From Squalus acanthias (taxonomy: Eukaryota), in NCBI GenBank assembly GCA_030390025.1, contig CM059432.1:70992001-71056000 (forward strand): 64,000 nucleotides of DNA. The letters are read 5' to 3'. Under the pieces are notes generated by a model. The model was not told the origin of the DNA. It saw nothing but the letters and a program-made list of their open reading frames with translations, and searched no databases. Below are positions 4,472 to 45,915 of the stretch, piece after piece; position 1 is the stretch's first letter, and the number at the start of each line of letters is the position of its first letter. Both the position numbers and the translations under genes were made by a program.

Positions 4472-4806
4472 GGGGGAAAAATTGAGTTGTGCCCCCCTTT
4501 GGGGCGCTAACTTTGCCAGGATGCTACTTTTAGCGCCCCGAAAAAATTAGCACCCCCGCAGCCGAAATTCATCGATAGCACCCCAAGAGGGATGCGGGGC
4601 GCTACTGGAAGCGCCCCGCCTACCTCTGGGGCGTTGCGAGGGAATATCGCGGTGCTACGTGCCGCGGTATTGCAGGCCTTCCTCCCCTTCTTAAAGGGGA
4701 GGGGCCTTGCGCAGCGCGACCCGGGGCCCAGCTGGGCCACTGGGGATCGGAGTGCCGGCATAAGAGGGCGCTAACGGAAGGCGCAAAGCAACCGAATTTC
4801 TCCCCC
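4472..4806. mobile_element. Harbinger-type MITE
   Basis: Termini GGGGGAAAAATT / AATTTCTCCCCC; GGCGCTA/TAGCGCC subterminal motifs; CpG-rich. Confidence 0.75.
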
Positions 4807-14699: not shown

Positions 14700-16800
14700 C
14701 TGCATCAAAATATGCTCCCTCCTAATTACCCCTATTTAATTCCCTTGAAGTGGATGCATCTGGACCAGTGCATGCAGTGTCTGGAGTGCTTGACAGATGC
14801 TCATGTCATGGATCCGGTTGCTGCTCCTCTTGTGCCAGCTTCCTGTTCTTGAAAAACCCCATAACAAATAGAAAGGGGTTGGAGCTACTGGCTGTGCACC
14901 AAGTTCAAGGCCATCATGGTGATGTGTACCAGAAGGGCAGGTGTTACTAGCTATTAGTCACTGATTGAACGTTAGTTGCTGGTAAGAATATGATGTTGAA
15001 GTGAGACATTGAACTGGCCTGAAGCCACCAAACTCTCACTCGTCCACTCCCTGAATGGCCTCCACCCTAATTATTTGGACAGCCTGCTCCTTGTAGCGGC
15101 TGAGTCATCATAGGTCAGATGGGCTGCCACCAGTGTTGGTTCTCTGCTGATGGCTATGTGCCGCCTTTTTTGAGCAATAAGGGATAATACGAGGGTTACC
15201 CCAAATGAGAGTTTACGTTCTACCTGGTGTGAAAGGATGAGCAGAGCACATGTATGTAGTTCAATGAACCATACAGTGAATTGGCGAGAAAACGTGCCAG
15301 AGCTGTATGAGTGAAAGGAAGCCTATCCCTTTGGTTGTCATCATGTCAGATATGCAGTTTCAGATATTTAGAAGGTTTAAAAAATAGATGTGGAGCGAGT
15401 GGTTTGCAGGTTGCATTGCAGATGTGGCTAGGTACTATAGGCAGATGTGGCTAGGTACTATAGGCAGATGTGGCTAGCTACTATAGGCAGATGTAGCTAG
15501 GTACTATAGGCTGATGTGGCTAGGTACTATAGGCTGATGTGGCTAGGTACTATAGGCTGATGTGGCTAGGTACTGTAGGCTGATGTGGCTAGGTGCTGTA
15601 GGCTGATGTGGCTAGGTACTATAGGCAGATGTGGCTAGGTACTATAGGCTGATGTGGCTAGGTACTATAGGCTGATGTGGCTAGGTACTATAGGCTGATG
15701 TGGCTAGGTACTATAGGCTGATGTGGCTAGGTACTATAGGCTGATGTGGCTAGGTACTATAGGCTGATGTGGCTAGGTACTATAGGCTGATGTAGCTAGG
15801 TACTATAGGCAGATGTGGCTAGGTACTATAGGCTGATGTGGCTAGGTACTATAGGCTGATGTGGCTAGGTACTATAGGCAGATGTGGCTAGGTACTATAG
15901 GCAGATGTGGCTAGGTACTATAGGCTGATGTGGCTAGGTACTATAGGCAGATGTGGCTAGGTACTATAGGCTGATGTGGCTAGGTACTAGGTACTATAGG
16001 CTGATTGCTTGGTGAGTACATAGTCCAGTCATCTTTTTACTTTGAGTGGGAAGAAATTTGCCTATCCCCCCCACCCCCCGGCACTCTCCTTCAGTCAGTC
16101 ACTGTTCTCATGAGCAACAAACAGAGGACACATCATTCAGACAATTGGTCACCTTCTGCCATGCTTCCTTTTATTTGGAGGATTTCCCTCTGCCCCTAAA
16201 ATTGTCACTTCCCTCAAGGCCTCCTCTTCCATCAAATACTGCAAGCTCTCTTCACAAGCCACTGTTTTCTTTAAGATTCTCTTCAGCCCTAGTGACTCAA
16301 TGCTACCGTGCACAGTATAAACATGCAGGGAGGTTATTATGTAAATAACCTGACCTTGTAGAATCTGGTAGGGCGGGCACAGTGCAGATGCACACAGAGG
16401 GCGTGGGCCATTTGGAATCTGATTGAGGAATTGGCACTTTGTGCCATGCATACTTTGAGCAGCTAATTAATATAAGGTAATGGTGAGTAGTCCCACATTG
16501 GCTGACCTGGTGAACTCTGTAAATTCCTTTTCACTTCCTAGTAGTTTCTCTAAGTGTTTTTCCCTGAGTTGACATGCATGGCCATCTCCTCCCAAGTACT
16601 TAGTTGCTCATCCGTACAGATAGTGCCCCAGAATACCAGACAATGCCACCTTCCTCTGCTGCACTTCAACAAAAAACATTAGTAAATCAAAGTACTCAGG
16701 CTACTGCATTACTTCTCTGCACTTGTCATTCAATGTATGGGAATTTTTCTGACAAAATCGCAGCTCCCCTTTAAATTGCTGCTGCAGGCCTTTAAATCCT
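14700..16800 (-). pseudogene. Highly degenerate Harbinger Myb-gene remnant
   Basis: Minus strand about 16490-16600 reads WEEMAMHVNS...EFTRSA, resembling W.EVA..VS...NDLTRS; CCCCTTTAAA upstream at about 16767, as in other copies. Boundaries approximate. Confidence 0.4.
15418..16005. repeat. 23-bp minisatellite GC(A/T)GATGTGGCTAGGTACTATAG, about 25 copies
   Basis: Directly visible, near-perfect tandem array with no spacers. Confidence 0.97.
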
Positions 16801-24300: not shown

Positions 24301-25028
24301 TTCTATTCTTTGCAAATATATTTCTGATATAATGGAATTAGCGCGAATGATAAAGGTATATTATTTTGTAGTTACTGAAGTAAAAGAGTTTAAAACTCTT
24401 AACAACAAATTTTATTTAGTGTAGAAAGCAATATATCCAAAACTACATGCAGGGCAGCCTGTGTATTATTCTTTGTCATTTATAAATTGCCTTAATTGAT
24501 TTCAGCTGTATAAATCAAAATACTTTTTGGGTTTGAACATTAATTTATATTTATAGCTCTTGGGAGAAGGGCCTGGACTCTCCCAGAACAGGCGAGCTGC
24601 CAAGAATGGAAAACAGGCAGAGAGCAGCGTGTTTAACTTCTGCTGAGGAGCTGCGGAGACCCTGTAAAAACAGTGTAAATGCCATTTACTTCCTTTTTCC
24701 AGTGTTTTCATGGCTTTTCTGCTAAAGTTATGGTGGACGAGCAGGAGAACATCCATGGAAAATGTCGAAATTCATTCCCTATATTTGCTGTATAAAATTA
24801 AAAGTTCAAAAAATAATTTGAAAATTAACTTACTTGAGAAGAAATATCACTTTGGGAAAAAAGGACAAGCTCGCAGTATAGCTGTGAGAGAAAGTTCACT
24901 AAAACAAAAGCAAAATACTACTGTTGCTGAAAATCTGAAATAAAAACAGAAAGTGCTGGAAAACACTCAGCAGGTCAGGCAGCATCTGTGGAGAGAGAAA
25001 CAGAGTTAACGGCCCCGAAATTAATCTC

Positions 25029-26453
25029 ACTCCTGTGCCCCTCTCTCCTGTGCCCCTCTCTCCTGTGCCCCTCTCTCCTGTGCCCCTCCCTCCTGTGCAC
25101 CTCCCTCCTGTGCCCCTCTCTCCTGTGCCCCTCTCTCCTGTGCCCCTCCCTCCTGTGCACCTCCCTCCTGTGCCCCTCTCTCCTGTGCCCCTCTCTCCTG
25201 TGCCCCTCTCTCCTGTGCCCCTCTCTCCTGTGCCCCTCTCTCCTGTGCCCCTCTCTCCTGTGCCCCTCCCTCCTGTACACCTCTCTCCTGTGCCCCTCTC
25301 TCCTGTACACCTCTCTCCTGTGCCCCTCTCTCCTGTGCCCCTCCCTCCTGTACACCTCTCTCCTGTGCCCCTCCCTCCTGTGCCCCTCCCTCCTGTGCAC
25401 CTCCCTCCTCGGTGCGCCTCCCTCCTGTGCACCTCCCTCCTGTGCACCTCTCTCCTGTGCCCCTCTCTCCTGTGCACATCTCTCCTGTGCCCCTCACTCC
25501 TGTGCACCTCACTCCTGTGCACCTCTCTCCTGTGCACCTCCCTCCTGTGCCCCTCTCTCGTGTGCCCCTCCCTCCTGTACACCTCCCTCCTGTGCCCCTC
25601 TCTCCTGTGCCCCTCCCTCCTGTGCACCTCCCTCCTGTGCCCCTCTCTCGTGTGCCCCTCTCTCCTGTGCCCCTCCCTCCTGTACACCTCCCTCCTGTGC
25701 CCCTCCCTCCTGTGCCCCTCCCTCCTGTGCACCTCCCTCCTGTGCCCCTCTCTCCTGTACACCTCTCTCCTGTGCCCCTCTCTCCTGTGCCCCTCTCTCC
25801 TGTGCCCCTCCCTCCTGTGCACCTCTCTCCTGTGCCCCTCTCTCCTGTGCCCCTCTCTCCTGTGCACCTCCCTCCTGTGCCCCTCTCTCCTGTGCCCCTC
25901 TCTCCTGTGCCCCTCTCTCGATTGCCCCTCTCTCCTGTGCCCCTCTCTCCTGTGCACCTCTCTCCTGTGCCCCTCTCTCCTGTGCCCCTCTCTCCTGTGC
26001 CCCTCTCTCCTGTGCCCCTCTCTCGTTTGCCCCTCTCTCCTGTGCACCTCTCTCCTGTGCCCCTCTCTCCTGTGCCCCTCTCTCCTGTGCCCCTCTCTCC
26101 TGTGCACCTCCCTCCTGTGCCCCTCTCTCCTGTGTCCCTCTCTCCTGTGCACCTCTCTCCTTTGCCCCTCTCTCCTGTGCCCCTCTCTCCTGTGCACCTC
26201 CCTCCTGTGCCCCTCTCTCCTGTGTCCCTCTCTCCTGTGCCCCTCTCTCCTTTGCCCCTCTCTCCTGTGCCCCTCTCTCCTGTGCACCTCCCTCCTGTGC
26301 CCCTCTCTCCTGTGTCCCTCTCTCCTGTGCACCTCTCTCCTTTGCCCCTCTCTCCTGTGCCCCTCTCTCCTGTGCACCTCCCTCCTGTGCCCCTCTCTCC
26401 TTTGCCCCTCTCTCCTGTGCACCTCCCTCCTGTGCCCCTCTCTCCTGTGCACC
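25029..26453. repeat. 15-bp minisatellite TGTGC(C/A)CCTC(T/C)CTCC, about 95 copies
   Basis: Directly visible tandem array. Confidence 0.97.
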
Positions 26454-26886
26454 TTTTATCTTGATAGACTGGAGAAGCTGGGGTTGTTCTCCTTGGAGCA
26501 GAGAAGATTGAGAGGAGATTTGATAGAGGTGTTCAAAATCATGAGGGGTCTGGACAGAGTAGATAGAGGGAAACTGTTCCCATTGGCAGAAGGGTGGAGA
26601 ACCAGAGGACGCAGATTTAAGGTGATTGGCAATAGGACCAAAGGTGACATAAGAAAAAACTTTTTTACTCAGCGAGTGGTTAAGATCTCGAATGCACTGC
26701 CTGAAAGGGTGGTGGAGGCAGATTCAATCATGGCTTTCAAAAGGGAGTTGGATAAGTACCTGTAGGAAAAAAAAAGGCTACAGGGAAAGGGCGAGGGATC
26801 GGACTAGCTGAACTGCTCTTGCAGAGAGACGGCACGGGCTCGACGGGCCGATTGGCCTCCTTCTGTGCTGTAACCATTCTATGATT
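26454..26886 (+). mobile_element. CR1 LINE 3' fragment inserted in the minisatellite
   Basis: [29 protein letters not shown]...FKRELDKYL; ATTCTATGATTCT tail. Confidence 0.92.
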
Positions 26887-27137
26887 CTCCTGTGCACCTC
26901 TCTCCTGTGCACCTCTCTCCTGTGCACCTCTCTCCTGTGCACACCTCTCCTGTGCACCTCTCTCCTGTGCACCTCTCTCCTGTGCACCTCTCTCCTGTGC
27001 ACCTCTCTCCTGTGTACACCTCTCCTGTGCACCTCTCTCCTGTGCACCTCTCTCCTGTGCACCTCTCTCCTGTGCCCCTCTCTCCTGTGCACCTCTCTCC
27101 TGTGCCCCTCACTCCTGTGCACCTCTCTCCTGTGCAC
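26887..27137. repeat. 15-bp minisatellite, distal part (about 17 copies, mainly TGTGCACCTCTCTCC)
   Basis: Directly visible. Confidence 0.95.
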
Positions 27138-34410: not shown

Positions 34411-34820
34411 ACTGTATTTCCCTCACTCCCACTGGCAATAAGTCAATGAATGGTGGTTTCCTGGGGGTAGAAATTAGGTCGCGCCCCATTTGGGGCGCAA
34501 ATATCGTCCGCGCGCAAATATTAGCGCCTGGCGCTAATTATCGGCACTGACAGGAAACTTCACTTTTACCGCCCCGGGAGGTGAGTGGAGCGCTAAATTA
34601 GGCGCTGCACACCTCTCTTAAGGCGCAAAGGCCTAGGAGTGAGGCGCTAACTCAGCGCACGAGCGCAGCGCAGCTGCTGCCAGTTAGCGAGGGAGCACAG
34701 ACACACTGGCGCCGGACACTTCTTAAAGCGGGGGGGGCCACTTGCTCCCCAGCCACACCCTGCTCATTGCAGCCTTGAATCTCAGCCTGGAGAGACCTGT
34801 AATCCATTTTGCTGCCAAGC

Positions 34821-36839
34821 ATGGAGAGGGTGAGAGAACGCGCTCATCGCTTCACCGAGCGGGCCTTGGATGCTCTGGTTGACGCAGTGGAGCGCAGACG
34901 ATGCATGCTGTTCCCAGAGAGTGGCAGGAGGCCTTTGCCACGTGAGTTCAGAAGAGTGTGGAGGGAGGTGGCTCAGAGCGTCTCCTCCAGGAGCATGGTG
35001 CCCAGGACCCATGTCCAGTGCCGCAAAAAGTTCAACGACCTCACTCGGGTCGTCAGGGTGAGTGGCTTTTTCTCAATACCTCTCCATCCCTCCATCTCAA
35101 CCTCACTCTATGGCCAGAGGGTCTTAAAACCCCAATGCACAACACTCATCCAACACCTATGGCCCTTTCATGAAACACACACACACATTCCACACTTTGC
35201 ATACAGTAAGGGCTATTCACCTATGGGAGGCACATCAGGCAAGACCATGGCTGCATACAGTAAGGGCTATTCACCTATGGGAGGCACATCAGGCAAGACC
35301 ATGGCTGCATACAGTAAGGGCTATTCGTCTATGGGAGGCACATCAGGCAAGACCATGGCTGCATATTGTAAGGGCTATTCACCTATGGGAGGCACATCAG
35401 GCAAGACCATGGCTGTATATTGACTCAGATGCTGTCCTTTTTCTTGCAGGCTAAGCTGGCTCATAATCGGAGACAGCAGCAACGGACGGGTGGAGGGCGG
35501 CTTCAGCTGCAACCCCTCAGCGATCTGGAGGAGCGCGTCCACAGGATTGTGGCAAGCCGGGTGATCGGTCCCGTCGCCACTGGAGACGCCGACCCCGTTG
35601 TGGACAGCAATGGTAAGGTCATCACCTTTTAGTCCTCTGTCCTTCCACTTGTCCCTCACAATACCAGCCTTTGACACTTTCAATCCAACTTGCTAACTCG
35701 CTGCACTTATTCCTCCCTTACTGCCACCCTGTCCTCACGCTAAAGCCACTCTTGTACCTCCCTGCTTTCAGATGGTGATTCACCAGCTGAGGAGATGGTC
35801 CCTGAAGCTGCCACTGGGAGTGATGCTGCAGCTGAGGAGGAAGAGGAAGCCGGAGCATCAGTGCCACACTCTCCCGAGGAAGCCCATGGCCACACTGGGA
35901 ACACGCCTTCCCCGGAGGGGAGCAGGGGGGAAGGGGCTGATGATGGTGAAGTTCCAGGACCCAGCGGGCTGCAGCAACGCCATGGGGGGGGGAGGGAAGA
36001 ACGGGGGAGCAGGGGGGAAGGGGCTGATGATGGTGAAGTTCCAGGACCCAGCGGGCTGCAGCAACGCCATGGGGGGGGGGAGGGAAGAACGGGAGCCTTC
36101 TCCCCAGAGGGAGAGTATGCCAGACACTCCTAATGCAATGGACGCAGAGGAGGAGCGGCTGATTGCAGAAATGAACAGCCAGGCGGTGGTCATGCACACT
36201 GAGCTCATGGGTGCAGTGGGAAGGGTGCCCAAATGCATTGAGGCACTGGCAAGGAGTGTGGAGCACTTCGCTGTAGCACAGGCGGATGCCACACTAAAGC
36301 TTACTGCTGCAATTCAGTCACTGGCTGCCAGGAACCCATCTGAGCCTGCTCTCATGCAGACTCAGATTGAGGCCACGCGAGCACTGACTGCTGCCATCCT
36401 CGATGGTTCGTGCACATGTCCCCGGGGCTGTCACCGCGCCGCAGCAGGCCAGCAATCTGTTCTCAGGCAAATTGCTCCGGATGCTGAAGTGCTGCCCCGT
36501 GGGAGTGCCAGTGTGTCGGGCGAGCAGGGAGTTGCTGTCCTCTCTCACGATGACAGCATTCCTGCTGCCAACACTGTCACTTCTCCACTGCACTTGCCAC
36601 CGCCTGTAGGACAGACTGCTGCCGCCCATGCAGAGTTGGTGCAGTCTGCAGCCGGGCCCTCCAGGCCCAGAAGTGGTCGAGGCCGTCCTTCAGGGGCATC
36701 TGCAGTGTCAGGGTCTGACAAGCAGCAGCCTTCCACCAGCCTTGCTGCAGCCACTGAGGTCCCATTACGGAGGAGCAGTAGGGTTAGAAGGGGGGAAGTG
36801 CGCAAGGGAAGGAGATCACCCTCGAAGGGCAAAAAGTAG
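34821..36839 (+). CDS. Harbinger Myb/SANT-like protein; exons 34821-35057, 35450-35612, 35772-36839; one +1 frameshift in the G10 run at 36071-36080
   Basis: MERVRERAHRFTERALDALVDAVERRR...WREVAQSVS...QCRKKFNDLTRVVR; GT-AG introns with compatible phases (0 and 1); basic C-terminus LRRSSRVRR...KGKK. Confidence 0.8.
35199..35418. repeat. 54-bp tandem repeat x4 in intron 1 of the Myb gene
   Basis: GCATACAGTAAGGGCTATTCACCTATGGGAGGCACATCAGGCAAGACCATGGCT repeated. Confidence 0.95.
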
Positions 36840-37133
36840 GAGGTGTGCCAAAATGCTGGTCATTTTTTTATTAAAGGCCGAGGTTCATGGCCCAACTTTT
36901 GTTTAGTGTTTTGGACATTATCTCCAGGTTGTGAGAACCAGTTATGTTATTGACTGTTTTTTTGTGTTTATTTCTATGAGTTTGTCATGAGGAATTGACA
37001 CACACAGAGTTTGTACAATAAATAGGTTTCTGTATTCAAAATATACATGGCTGGTGGTTGGAATTATTGGTGCCTTGGCCGGCTTAGGGGTTGCGTGCTG
37101 GGTTGATTCGTGTTTGTAGCACTGGCAGGGGCC

Positions 37134-38294
37134 CTAGAAGCGGCTTGCTATTAGTCGTTGACGGACGGCCCTTGCAGTTTGACCATTGTGGGCCGCCCTC
37201 CTGCCTTGGTGCTGCTGCTGATCATCGTCCTCGGCCTGTTCCTCCTCTTCCTCCTCCTCCTCTTGTGGTGCTGCAAGGCCTGGTGGCATTGGCTGCGTCC
37301 TGAGGATTGCCATGTTGTGCAACATGCAGCACACCACTACGAATTTGGAAACTTGCTCAGGCGAGTACTGCAGGGCTCCTCCGGAATGGTCCAGACAGCG
37401 GAATCGTTGTTTGAGCACGCCGATTGTGCGCTCAATAATGTTCCTCGTTGCTTGTTGGCTTTCCTGGTACCGCAGCTCAGCAGGGGTGTTTGGCGCACGG
37501 AGCGGTGTCATCAGCCAGGTGCTCAATGCGTACCCCTTGTCCCCCAGAAGCCAACCAACTGGCTGATGCGGTGCCTCGAAAATTTCTGCCACAGTACTCT
37601 GGCGCAGGATGAAAGCATCGTGGCAGCTGCCCGGATAGTGGGCATTGACAGCGAGAATCACCTGTCTGTGGTCACAGACCAACTGCACATTCAAGGAATG
37701 GAACCCCTTTCTGTTCCGGAACTCCTCTGCATTCTCTCGCGGAGCACGCAAAGCCACATGCGTGCAGTCAATGGCGCCCTGCACCATGGGGAAGCCCGCT
37801 ACCCTCGCAAAGCCCATAGCACGGTCATGCTGCTTGTCTGGGGTCATAGGGAAGGAGATGAAGTCTCGTCTCCTTGTGAAGAGGGCATTGGTGACCTGCC
37901 GGATGCAGCGATGCACCGCAAACTGGGAGATATTGGCGAGGTCCCCAACAGCAGCTTGGAATGAGCCAGTGGCGTAGAAGTTCAAGGCCACTGTGACCTT
38001 CACTGCCACCGACAGAGACGTCCTGGACCTCAGCTGAGGCTGCAGATCTGGCTGCAGCAGGTGGCAGAGCTCAGTGACCACCTCCTTGCTGAATCGCAGC
38101 CTTCGCAAACACAGCTCCTCGGACATGTGGATGTAGGAGAGCTGTTCACGATATACCCTGGGAGGGTAAGCTCTCCTGTACATGCGCCTGATGGGCCTCC
38201 TCCGTCTGGCCATCATTGCCACTCTCTGTCTGCGTCTCACTCTGCTCCGATTGAGCTGGAGCAGGACGACGCCCCCAATCATTGCAGCCCCCAT
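37134..38294 (-). CDS. Harbinger DDE transposase (HARBI1-like), intact 386-aa ORF
   Basis: [59 protein letters not shown] all present; no stops. Confidence 0.93.
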   Translation of the reverse strand: MGAAMIGGVVLLQLNRSRVRRRQRVAMMARRRRPIRRMYRRAYPPRVYREQLSYIHMSEELCLRRLRFSKEVVTELCHLLQPDLQPQLRSRTSLSVAVKVTVALNFYATGSFQAAVGDLANISQFAVHRCIRQVTNALFTRRRDFISFPMTPDKQHDRAMGFARVAGFPMVQGAIDCTHVALRAPRENAEEFRNRKGFHSLNVQLVCDHRQVILAVNAHYPGSCHDAFILRQSTVAEIFEAPHQPVGWLLGDKGYALSTWLMTPLRAPNTPAELRYQESQQATRNIIERTIGVLKQRFRCLDHSGGALQYSPEQVSKFVVVCCMLHNMAILRTQPMPPGLAAPQEEEEEEEEQAEDDDQQQHQGRRAAHNGQTARAVRQRLIASRF

Positions 38295-38934
38295 CTTCTC
38301 TTTGCCAGAAAAGTAATGAGGTACAGCAACGAAAGTAGCAGCAAAGTTAGGATGAACTAGGCCAAACTACCTCACAAAGCGTTGAGTCAATGTAGAAGTC
38401 TCTCTCTCTCTCTCTCCGAATCTCTCTCTCTCTCTCAGAACGAGTGGTGCATAAATGTCGACCACAGAAAAAGACAGGAAGAGGCCCCCTTTAAATAGCG
38501 CCCCCCCCAGCCCCAGACCGATTGATAACGTTCCAGTCTTCCGGTCGTTGGAAGCGCCAGGCGGTAAGGCAGGGGGCGCCACTCAATTTCCGCTCCGGGG
38601 CGCCCCAAGGGCGTTGCACCACGGACTGACGTCACAATCTGCGCGCGCAGGTGGTCGCAGCGGTAAGTTTTAGCGCCACCGCACAATCTCAAGTTAAGTT
38701 CTCGAGCGGCGCAAACAGCGCTGCGCCCGGGCGTTAGCGCCTTAACGCCCCATTAGCGCCCATTTAAGGCGCTAACGGGAGGCGCAACCAACTGAATTTT
38801 TACCCCCTGGCCTCTAAATTGCTCTGCATGGCTAATGATGATTTGGCAAGGAAATTGTGGTAGGTTAGCAGCGGTTTCACATTGGTGAGCATTAGGATCA
38901 CCCCGTTGCAAACCATAGTTAGACATCCCGTTAT

Positions 38935-39443
38935 AGGAAGGATATAATAGCAATGGAAAAGCTACATTATAGATTCATTAGCATTTTGTCAGATATGAGA
39001 GGTTGCAGGTATGAAAACAGACTTAAGAAATTAGGACTTTTTTCACTAGAGCCAAGAAGGTTCATGGGTGACCTGATAGAGATCCTCAAGATCCTGAATG
39101 GTTATGATGAAATAAATAGTGATAGATTGTTTCTATTGGTTAGCAAAATGGCACAAATTTAAGATAATTACAAAAAGAATTAAAGGGGAGTTTAGAAAAA
39201 ATATCTTTACACCACAGGTGATTAGAATGTGGAATTATCTGTCATAAACTGTTGTTGAAGCAATTGGATGCAATGGTGCAAGATTGACATCCATCACTGC
39301 CAATTGATTATTTTAAAGGGATTTGGAAAGTTGTTTGTAAAAAATGAATATTAAAGGGCTTTTGGAGCAGGCAAGGGAGTGGGATTAGAATAGGTGGCTC
39401 ATCTTGTGCTTAAATGGCCTGTTTCTGTGCTGTAATGTTCCGT
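38935..39443 (+). mobile_element. Old CR1 LINE 3' fragment
   Basis: [31 protein letters not shown]. Confidence 0.8.
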
Positions 39444-42691: not shown

Positions 42692-45510
42692 AGAACTTAT
42701 AAGAACATAAGAAATAGGAGCAGGAGTAGGCCATTCGGCCCTTCGAGCCTGCTCTGCCATTCAATGAGATCATGGCTGATCTTCTGCCTCAACTCCATTC
42801 ACCGGCCCTATCGCCATATCCCTTGATGCCCCTACTAGTCAGAAATCTATCGACTTCTGTTTTGAATATACCCAATGACTGAACCTCCATAGCCCTCTGG
42901 GGTAGGGAATTCCAAAGATTCACCACCCTCTGTGTGAAGAAATTTCTTCTCATCTCAGTTCTGAATGGCCCACCCTTTATCCTGAGGCTGTGGCCCCTGG
43001 TTCTAGACTGCCCAGCCAAGGGAAACATTCTCCCAGCATCCACCCTATCAAGCCCTGTAATAATTTTGTATGCTTCAATGAGATCCCCTCTCATTCTTCT
43101 GAATTCAAGAGAATACAGGCCTAGTTTAGTCAATCTCTTCTCATACGACAGTCCCGCCATCCCAGGAATCAATCTCGTGAACCTTCGTTGCGCTCCCTCT
43201 ATGGCAAGTATATCCTTCCTTAGGTAAGGAGACCAAAATTGTACACAGTACTCCAGGTGTGGTCTCACCAAGACCCTATATAATTGGAGTAAGACTTCTT
43301 TACTGCTGTACTCAAATCCTCTTGTAATGAAGGCCAGCATACCATTTGCCTTCCTAATGGCTTGCTGCACCTGCACATTCACTTTCAGTGACTCATGTAC
43401 AAGGACACCCAGGTCCCTTTGGGCATCTGCATTCCCCAATCTTTCACCATTTAGGAAATACTCTGCCTTTCTGTTTTTTCTACCAAAGTGGATAACTTCA
43501 CATTTATCCACATTATATTCCATCTGCCATGTTCTCGCCCACTCACTGAGCCTGTCGAGATCCCCTTGAAGCCTCTTCACATCCTCTTCACAACTGACAC
43601 TGCCACCTAGCTTTGTATCATCAGCAAATTTGGAAATGTTACATTTAGTCCCCTCATCCAAATCATTGATATAGATTGTGAATAGCTGGGGCCCAAGCAC
43701 CGATCCTTGCGGTACCCCACTAGTCACAGCCTGCCATCCTGAAAAAGACTTGTTTATCCCTACTCTTTGTTTTCTGTCTGTTAACCAATTCTCAATCCAT
43801 GTTAGTATATTACCCCCAATTCCATGTGCCCTAATTTTGTTCACCAACCTCTTGTGTGGGACCTTATCGAAGGCATTCTGAAAATCCAAATACACCACAT
43901 CTACTGGTTCCCCTTTGTCTACTCCACTAGTTACATCCTCAAAGAACTCCAATAGGTTTGTTAAACAGGATTTCCCTTTCATAAATCCATGTTGACTCTG
44001 CCCAATCTTACTATTAGTTTCTAAGTGCCCAGTTATTGCATCCTTTATAATAGATTCCAACATTTTCCCAACTACTGATGTGAGGCTAACAGGTCTGTAG
44101 TTCCCCGTTTTCTCTCTCCCTCCTTTCTTAAAAAGCGAGGTTACTTTTGCTATCTTCCAATCTGCAGGAACCGTTCCAGAATCTATAGAATTTTGGAAGA
44201 TGACAACCAATGCGTCCACTATCCCAATGGCCACCTCTTTCAAAACCCTAGGATGTAGGTCATCTGGTCCTTGGGATTTATCAACTTTTAATCCCATTAA
44301 TTTTGCTAGTACTGTTTTTTTTACCAATAATAATTTCTTTAAGTTCCTCATTCTCGCCACACCCTTGGTTTTCTCGTATTTCTGGGAGTTTTTTTGTGTC
44401 TTCCTCCGTGAAGACAGAAACAAAGTATTTATTTAAATTCTCAGCCATTTCCTCATTCCCCATTATAAATTCTCCCGTCTCTGACTGTAAAGGACCTACA
44501 TTTACCTTTGCCAGTCTTTTCCTTTTCACATACCTATAGAAGCTTTTACAATCCGTTTTTATATTTTTCGCTAGTTTGTGCTCATATTCCATTTTCCCTT
44601 TCTTTATCAATTTCTTGGTCCCCCTTTGCTGATTTCTGAAAAGGTCCCAATCCTCAAGCTGACCGCTTTTCTGGCAACTTTATAAGCTTCCTCCCTTGAC
44701 TTAATACTAGCTTTAATTTCTTTTGTTAGCCATGGTTGGATCACTTTTCCTTTTGGGTTTTTATGCCCTAGAGGAATATATGTTTGTTGCAAATTATGCA
44801 TTATTTCCTTGAATGTTAGCCATTGTATGTCCACCTTCATACCTTTTAGTGTAGTCTCCCAATCTACCAGGGCCAACTTGTCCCTCATACCCTTGTAGTT
44901 TCCTCTGTTTAGATTGAAGACCTTAGTTTCAGATTGGACTACATCACTCTCAAACTTAATGTAAAATTCAATCATATTATGGTCACTTGTCCCTAAATGC
45001 CCCTTTACCACAAGATTATTGATTAACCCTTTCTCATTACACAGTACCAGATCCAGAATAGCCTGTTCCCTGGTTGGTTCCTCCACATACTGATCCAGGA
45101 AACCATCTCGCATGCATTCCAAGAATTCGTCCTCCACACCATTAGTGGTAATTTGATTTGCCCAGTCAATATGTAGATTAAAGTCCCCCATGATTACCGT
45201 ATTGCCCTTGTTACATGCACTTCTAATTTCTTGATTGATACTGTGCCCTACATTACCACTACTGTTTGGTGGCCTATACACTACTCCCACCAATGTTTTC
45301 TGCCCTTTGCTGTTTCTTAGCTCCACCCAAACTGATTCCAGTTCTACATCACGATCTGCCGAGCCAAGAACTTTTATCTCTACCGTAACTATCTCATCCC
45401 TTATTAACAGCGCTACGCCACCTCCTTTTCCTTTTTGTCTGTCCTTCCTAAATGTTGGGTACCCTGGAACATTCGGTTCCCAGCTTTGGTTACCCTGCAA
45501 CCATGTTTCT
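42692..45510 (-). mobile_element. Young CR1 LINE with nearly complete ORF2 (APE endonuclease + RT), two frameshifts
   Basis: VTETWL, VYRPP, GDFN, SDHN (endonuclease); GVPQGSVLGP, FADDTKL (RT); (TTCTTATG) tail. Confidence 0.95.
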
Positions 45511-45915
45511 GTAACTTGCATTTATATAGCGTCTTTCATGACCTCATAATTTTCCAAATGTACTACAGCCAATGTAGTACTTTTGAAGTGTAGTCACTGA
45601 TGTAATGTAGAGAAACACAGCAGCCAATTTGCACACAAGGCCCCACAAACAGCAATAACCAGATAATCTGTTTCAGTGATGTTGGTTGAGGGATAAATAT
45701 TGGCCAGGACCTTGGGGAGAACTTCCCTGCTCTTCTTCGAATTGTGCAAGGTGGTGTTTTACATCCACCTGGGAGGGCAGATGTAAAACACCTCCGACAG
45801 TGCAGTACTTCTTAAGTGTCAGTCTAGTTTATGTGCTCATATTTCTGGAGTGGGACTTGAAGCCACAAACTTTTGACTCACAGGCGAGAGTGCTATCACT
45901 GAGCCCAGGCTGATA
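45511..45915 (-). mobile_element. Deu-domain tRNA SINE
   Basis: Same family as 34023. Confidence 0.85.

Follow-up and report, generated by a model that had tools for sequence, protein, structure and literature searches.

In the PIF/Harbinger superfamily of transposons two proteins are needed for transposition: a transposase, plus a protein of the Myb-like type that binds to a subterminal motif and brings the transposase into the nucleus (PMC2836001, PMC9392472, PMC9710019; papers given by PMC number are cited throughout for individual passages). Here we analyse a PIF/Harbinger element of 4,343 bp, located at positions 34464..38806 of a stretch of 64,000 nucleotides from Squalus acanthias (assembly GCA_030390025.1, contig CM059432.1, positions 70,992,001 to 71,056,000), which is referred to as the window. 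Zebrafish Harbinger3_DR resembles this element in combining a transposase gene with a Myb-like gene, in the CWG duplication, in the CCWGG target core, and in a repeated subterminal motif (PMC3016246, PMC2836001, PMC9710019). Its activity was demonstrated with reconstructed proteins in human cells, whereas the shark element is known from its sequence alone and is likened to Harbinger3_DR by description.

The rice elements Ping, Pong, and mPing likewise require two proteins, generate a 3-bp duplication, excise precisely, and have miniature inverted-repeat transposable element (MITE) derivatives, but they belong to plants, target TTA/TAA, and have been shown to be active in nature (PMC2836001, PMC4561436). 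A massive expansion within vertebrates, with two-gene, single-gene, and short non-autonomous copies, is described for Harbinger-Snek of sea kraits (PMC8437027). Harbinger-Snek was acquired horizontally, whereas the shark element falls in a native clade of cartilaginous fish and its studied copy is broken. The sea krait L. colubrina carries 269 fully intact Harbinger copies, and RNA reads cover both open reading frames (ORFs) in L. laticaudata (PMC8437027); the rarity that a first-pass annotation of the window implied for such an element was therefore overstated.

Shark and ray proteins labelled 'putative nuclease HARBI1' belong to the same transposase clade as the protein studied here, but these entries carry no element anatomy. 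The cited passages of a 2022 survey report no Harbinger in the elephant shark and call for other cartilaginous fish to be surveyed (PMC9179366), and for the whale shark and the grey reef shark the superfamily is named but no element is described (PMC8455134, PMC12498223). A detailed account of a Harbinger family from a shark or ray did not turn up in our literature search, whose scope did not extend to subscription journals, supplements, Repbase, or Dfam; the whale shark and grey reef shark repeat tables may be relevant to this negative result.

Structure of the element and its transposase

The element is an ordinary, newly described member of the PIF/Harbinger superfamily, and its host is a shark or ray. 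We consider it likely that it is a true insertion, that its family is large, comprises several subfamilies, and is native to sharks and rays, and that this copy inserted late, has been frameshifted since then, and is non-autonomous on its own. Several features of the superfamily are present: a DDE transposase, a separate Myb/SANT trihelix gene, a target site duplication (TSD) of 3 bp, terminal inverted repeats (TIRs), a CCWGG target, and many copies with derivatives (Table 1). The Harbinger identity proposed in the first-pass annotation, together with an intact founder of the family, is supported.

The CTG duplication was confirmed on both sides of the element. Its boundary is formally ambiguous, since a 3-bp CTG duplication with 4-G ends and a 5-bp CCTGG duplication with 3-G ends are the same string; the 3-bp reading was chosen because it follows the rule of the superfamily. 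TIRs are present as first annotated, but they are only 12 bp long and 11/12 identical, with one mismatch (GGGGTAGAAATT / GGGGTAAAAATT), and are thus shorter than the 25-50 bp usual for the superfamily (PMC9179366). Beyond these 12 bp no extended identity was found between the two ends. The rejoined empty site, a single site only, agrees with the Harbinger3_DR target consensus AAACACCWGGTCTTT (taken from PMC3016246) at 8/15 positions, including the whole CCWGG core.

Table 1 Features of the shark Harbinger element (window positions)
Feature	Positions	Strand	Remarks
Left TSD CTG, within CCWGG target core	34461..34463	+	rejoined empty site 8/15 to target consensus
Left TIR, 12 bp	34464..34475	+	11/12 identical to right TIR
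Left subterminal CpG-rich region	34476..34760	.	four TAGCGCY motifs: 34522, 34530, 34589, 34643
Myb exon 1, trihelix domain, 79 aa	34821..35057	+	PF13873 E 1.3e-9; donor kept in neighbouring element
Myb intron 1, GT-AG, phase 0	35058..35449	+	with tandem array, 54 bp x 4.1, 35198-35419
Myb exon 2, 163 nt	35450..35612	+	53% protein identity over 45 aa to neighbour exon 2
Myb intron 2, GT-AG, 159 nt	35613..35771	+	neighbour intron 156 nt
Myb exon 3, acidic linker, C-terminal region, and basic tail	35772..36839	+	frameshifted, premature stop 36131-36133
87-bp in-frame tandem duplication, exon 3	35917..36093	+	unit 2 carries ten-G run; unit 1 nine G (35984-35992)
3' region common to both convergent genes	36840..37133	.	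AATAAA on + (37017), on - (36867, 36967)
Harbinger DDE transposase, intronless, 386 aa	37134..38294	-	PF13359; D176-D252-E288; database match 65%
Right subterminal CpG-rich region	38496..38794	.	five TAGCGCC motifs: 38496, 38671, 38735, 38754, 38768
Right TIR, 12 bp	38795..38806	-	
Right TSD CTG	38807..38809	+	

The transposase frame is uninterrupted, as first annotated, and matches PF13359 with an E value of 5e-38 as well as PF04827. Its catalytic triad is complete and lies in the motifs GAIDCTH, GDKGY, and IIERTIG; the three residues are kept in 52 of the 109 relatives that cover all three positions. The closest protein among the matches listed is a 'putative nuclease HARBI1' of Pristiophorus japonicus with 65% identity. 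Because no listed protein is closer than 66%, the family has no annotated near relative in the searched database. Sharks and rays are the source of the first 64 of 120 listed relatives, and in a quick tree of 53 rows the transposase falls inside a clade of 33 rows with a support of 99, in which every named row is a cartilaginous fish. The CpG observed/expected ratio (o/e) of the ORF, 0.57 vs 0.37-0.51 in four decayed neighbours, is a weak sign of relative youth. A complex prediction for transposase residues 1-340 and part of the Myb C-terminal region, in which the alignment was not used, gave a score of 0.00, which argues neither for nor against a complex.

TAGCGCY has 30 matches in the window vs 5.2 expected, clustered at Harbinger ends, and nine of them lie in the ends of the studied element. 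TAGCGCC is a candidate Myb-binding site. The left subterminal region would contain the promoter of the Myb-like gene and the right one that of the transposase gene, and the AATAAA copies between the two genes may act as polyadenylation signals. The ends of the element are indeed rich in CpG (o/e 0.90 and 1.12 vs 0.40 for the window), but this is not special to them, as four other Harbinger-type termini in the window (at 4.5, 12.7, 14.2, and 27.8 kb) reach 0.80-1.06. CpG-rich ends are therefore no marker of age, since decayed neighbours have them too, and we rejected them as dating evidence. A search of Rfam around the element gave no match.

Size and divergence of the family

Contigs from four of the 24 listed sequencing runs (X1, X2, X9, and X18) were aligned to the stretch; the shares listed for the other 20 runs did not enter the evidence. 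X1 and X2 are deep DNA runs of one organism (A), from different samples and studies, and contributed 38,050 and 47,305 aligned contigs, respectively. Their summed depth, which is no true copy number, gives rough bounds of ~1,400 to 87,000 copies. The family is thus large, with roughly 10^3 copies or more. In all four aligned runs the ends are deeper than the interior, as expected if short non-autonomous derivatives share the ends. Many contigs of X2 and X9 track the left end up to position 34801 and then enter other shared sequence, a switch pointing to a derivative or a sister family with the same left end.

The copies are heterogeneous. Among the contigs of X1 and X2, which are short and cannot be phased into copies, 16-18% are alike at 99% or more and 50-53% only at 90-95%. 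The longest dominant contigs differ from it at 40/2,287 positions in X9 (1.7%, a figure that leaves out two low-depth variant contigs) and at 57/1,814 positions in X18 (3.1%). Across all four runs transversions outnumber transitions in the differences between family copies (110 vs 75 in X1) and there is little signal of CpG decay, which is unusual for a vertebrate repeat family.

Within the transposase and the trihelix exon, 14 of the 22 displayed differences are synonymous vs 23% expected (p 6e-5), whereas all five displayed differences in the acidic linker change the residue; these counts rest on 40 displayed of 225 differences. The synonymous excess indicates that the subfamilies diverged while their proteins worked, i.e., under purifying selection. 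At least 11 displayed sites of the studied copy (0.25%) differ from at least 86% of the depth in both deep runs. The three that fall in the transposase are all amino acid replacements (P34, S233, K317); S233 and K317 are found in relatives, and column 34 is poorly aligned. For the epaulette shark a mutation rate of 7e-10 per site per generation with a tenfold confidence interval is reported (PMC10587355). With this rate, which comes from another species, the 0.25% corresponds to ~3.6 million generations, a figure that is a caution and not a date, given the tenfold interval and the possibility that the window's species is not organism A.

The Myb-like gene and its frameshift

The Myb-like gene lies on the plus strand, convergent with the transposase gene. 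Its three-exon structure was confirmed as first annotated: all introns have GT/AG ends and exon 1 encodes the trihelix domain. A neighbouring Harbinger element at ~27.8-31.5 kb, with 65-76% DNA identity, has the same donor and acceptor contexts, among them both contexts of exon 2, and nearly equal intron lengths. Its intron 1 measures 225 nt vs ~230 nt in the studied copy once three extra array units are removed. Since this neighbour is ~27-35% diverged in DNA and still keeps the splice sites and the frame, the model is independently supported.

In the studied copy, the ten-G run at 36071-36080 shifts the frame, and the product ends after 253 aa vs ~488 aa if the downstream frame were completed. 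The neighbour contains the 87-mer as a single unit and has one open frame through the region of the G run, and the family contigs carry six-G and nine-G forms, both in frame. The ten-G form was seen in none of the displayed contigs of the four aligned runs, but because contigs drop rare variants, a real slip and an assembly error are indistinguishable. As assembled, the copy is non-autonomous because its Myb-like gene is frameshifted, so the autonomy assigned to it in the first-pass annotation fails. The extra G named there as the sole defect is the only one affecting the frame, but the 87-bp duplication in exon 3 and the 54-bp array in intron 1 had been missed.

Direct joining of exon 1 to exon 3 (34821-35057 / 35772-36839) cancels the extra G and gives an open frame of 434 aa that keeps the C-terminal region, making an exon-2-skip product a possible rescue isoform. 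Such skipping costs the conserved exon-2 segment and puts the linker in another frame. As the premature stop lies in the last exon, a truncated DNA-binding protein could be made. No RNA run is on record among the listed holders of the stretch, which says nothing for or against expression. In X18, which we guess to be an RNA run, unspliced contigs cross the donor of exon 1 (34979-35227) and the whole of intron 2 (35601-35795), and the 15 displayed joints of 61 include no spliced one; the run may hold DNA or read-through and was not counted as evidence. A search, weak in itself, found no longer relative of the C-terminal part of Myb, and a search of solved structures returned only a low-complexity chance match.

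The insertion site

One contig of X2 (record 24, 457 nt, depth 7.4) aligns from its letter 79 on to 38806-39050, with 3/245 letters different (~1.2%). Its first 78 letters before 38806 are unaligned, and a count of 78 letters back from the insertion site reaches the end of the upstream short interspersed element (SINE). A filled allele would align from letter 1. Because an empty site and the filled right junction have exactly four letters in common, the alignment is expected to begin at 38806. We infer that this contig represents an empty allele, i.e., a closely related haplotype that would lack the element; the difference may lie within a species or between species. Given the ~1.2% divergence of the flank, the insertion would be recent in its lineage. 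Precise excision, which is usual for the superfamily (PMC2836001, PMC4561436), would leave the same sequence. On the slow clock of sharks a lineage-recent insertion can still mean millions of generations. The description of the element as young therefore holds in a relative sense only, by virtue of the putative empty allele; the family is heterogeneous, and low divergence in sharks does not imply a short time.

In both X1 and X2, position 38806 is also joined to 34464 through a single A (depth 45 and 26, respectively). The joint, at which the right end meets the left end head to tail, reads CCAGG, the target core. That two samples show the same form, at roughly one copy to a few, speaks for a fixed tandem junction; an end-joined circle is the bolder reading.

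Alternative explanations

Four observations weigh against a native family with a late, now defective copy. Organism A is possibly not the species of the window, which would inflate the apparent private divergence; the transposase tree was computed without bootstrap; the tenth G may be an assembly error, in which case the copy is intact; and the left piece of the empty allele is not displayed, so that its joint is deduced. If the tenth G is an error, or if skipping of exon 2 restores the 434-aa frame, the studied copy could be a working, autonomous member of a family that is transposing now. Its complete D-D-E transposase and intact ends, the fraction of contigs at least 99% alike, the putative empty allele in an independent sample, the open exon 1-exon 3 frame, and the lack of a displayed ten-G form in any run would agree with this. 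However, roughly half the contigs reach no more than 90-95% similarity, the dominant contigs of X9 and X18 differ by 1.7% and 3.1%, and at the near-fixed sites, at least 11 in number, the copy departs from almost the whole family depth of X1 and X2, those in the transposase changing amino acids as in neutral drift (by a post hoc threshold and at few sites). The skip product, for its part, would lack the conserved exon-2 segment and read the linker in another frame. We regard a working copy as unlikely. Similarly improbable, in our view, is that some subfamily transposes today with native, unreconstructed proteins and that the right-end/A/left-end junction is a circle, or a re-inserted circle, forming a CCWGG target.

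The opposite reading, an extinct family that looks fresh only through slow shark mutation, is less probable than the native family with a late insertion, but a possibility to be reckoned with. Under assumed generation times and the range of the epaulette-shark rate (PMC10587355), the near-fixed difference would span 18-90 million years, and CpG-rich ends persist even in decayed neighbours. On the other hand, the flank of the putative empty allele is nearly identical, the rate comes from another species with its tenfold interval, and some of the near-fixed differences may be subfamily-level rather than post-insertion. Of the 24 listed runs, 20 contain part of the stretch; they come from 10 studies and represent seven coded organisms (A-G), as horizontal transfer among these organisms would predict. 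But X9, the one aligned run from another organism (C), has the element and the flanking host SINE at tiny depth (~25 and ~103, respectively). The two stand in a ratio similar to that of X1 and X2, and the unique flank is absent; such a pattern is compatible with traces of shark DNA or with a relative that was sequenced thinly. With the first 64 listed protein matches all from sharks and rays, horizontal transfer was rejected as very improbable. Domestication as a host gene pair of the HARBI1/NAIF1 type is still harder to maintain. The relatives are labelled 'putative nuclease HARBI1' and the ORF is intact, but the labelling is automatic and extends to dozens of paralogues in each shark genome, and the element has TIRs, a TSD, very many copies, and a putative empty allele. 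A domesticated HARBI1/NAIF1/MSANTD gene, expected as a single fixed locus without TIR or TSD, was likewise rejected.

Neighbouring elements in the window

The window has a very high density of Harbinger elements. At least five further decayed ones, of different families, lie at ~4.8-8.5, 27.8-31.5, 54-56.7, 57.5-60.3, and 61.8-62.9 kb; transposase remnants, apart from the studied copy, number five. The element at 27.8 kb has a long open transposase frame with D-D-E, but its Myb gene is frameshifted. A non-coding element of 335 bp at 4472-4806 is similar at its two ends to the left and right termini of the studied copy; it is a Tourist-like MITE of a related family and now lacks a clean flank duplication. 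Between 12692 and 14200, CpG-rich Harbinger-type termini face each other with no transposase match between them, possibly a non-autonomous element of 1.5 kb.

Long open frames of 304 aa and 547 aa are located on the minus strand at 42789-45521. From their motifs we take them to be a CR1-type long interspersed element with an endonuclease-like (304 aa) and a reverse-transcriptase-like (547 aa) protein. Two arrays were noted: a 15-bp minisatellite at 25026-27137, inside a CR1-like fragment (95 and 17 copies), and an array of 23 bp x 25 at 15421-15989.

Model and implications

By analogy with zebrafish Harbinger3_DR and rice Ping/Pong, for which the mechanism is established, the Myb-like protein of intact members would bind the repeated subterminal motifs (candidate TAGCGCC) and bring the DDE transposase to the nucleus and to the element ends. 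The element would then be cut out and inserted into a CCWGG site with duplication of CWG. The studied copy would be a late insertion in its lineage that afterwards acquired a few private changes, the 87-bp duplication, and the one-base slip in the G run that truncates the Myb-like protein. Such a copy would need Myb protein from elsewhere; its ends look mobilisable, and it could donate transposase in trans.

The locus provides the full anatomy for a shark or ray Harbinger family and a motif that is a candidate for Myb binding; with at least five further Harbinger remnants in the window, it also gives evidence that the expansion was large. Should a subfamily still be mobile, it would yield native Harbinger proteins from a vertebrate, as well as insertion markers usable in sharks. 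In a gene-transfer tool, the known limits of the group would be the two proteins and the narrow target preference. Transposition today would make this a naturally active, two-component vertebrate transposase with a narrow target preference, and would provide an internal clock for the slowly evolving genome of a shark.

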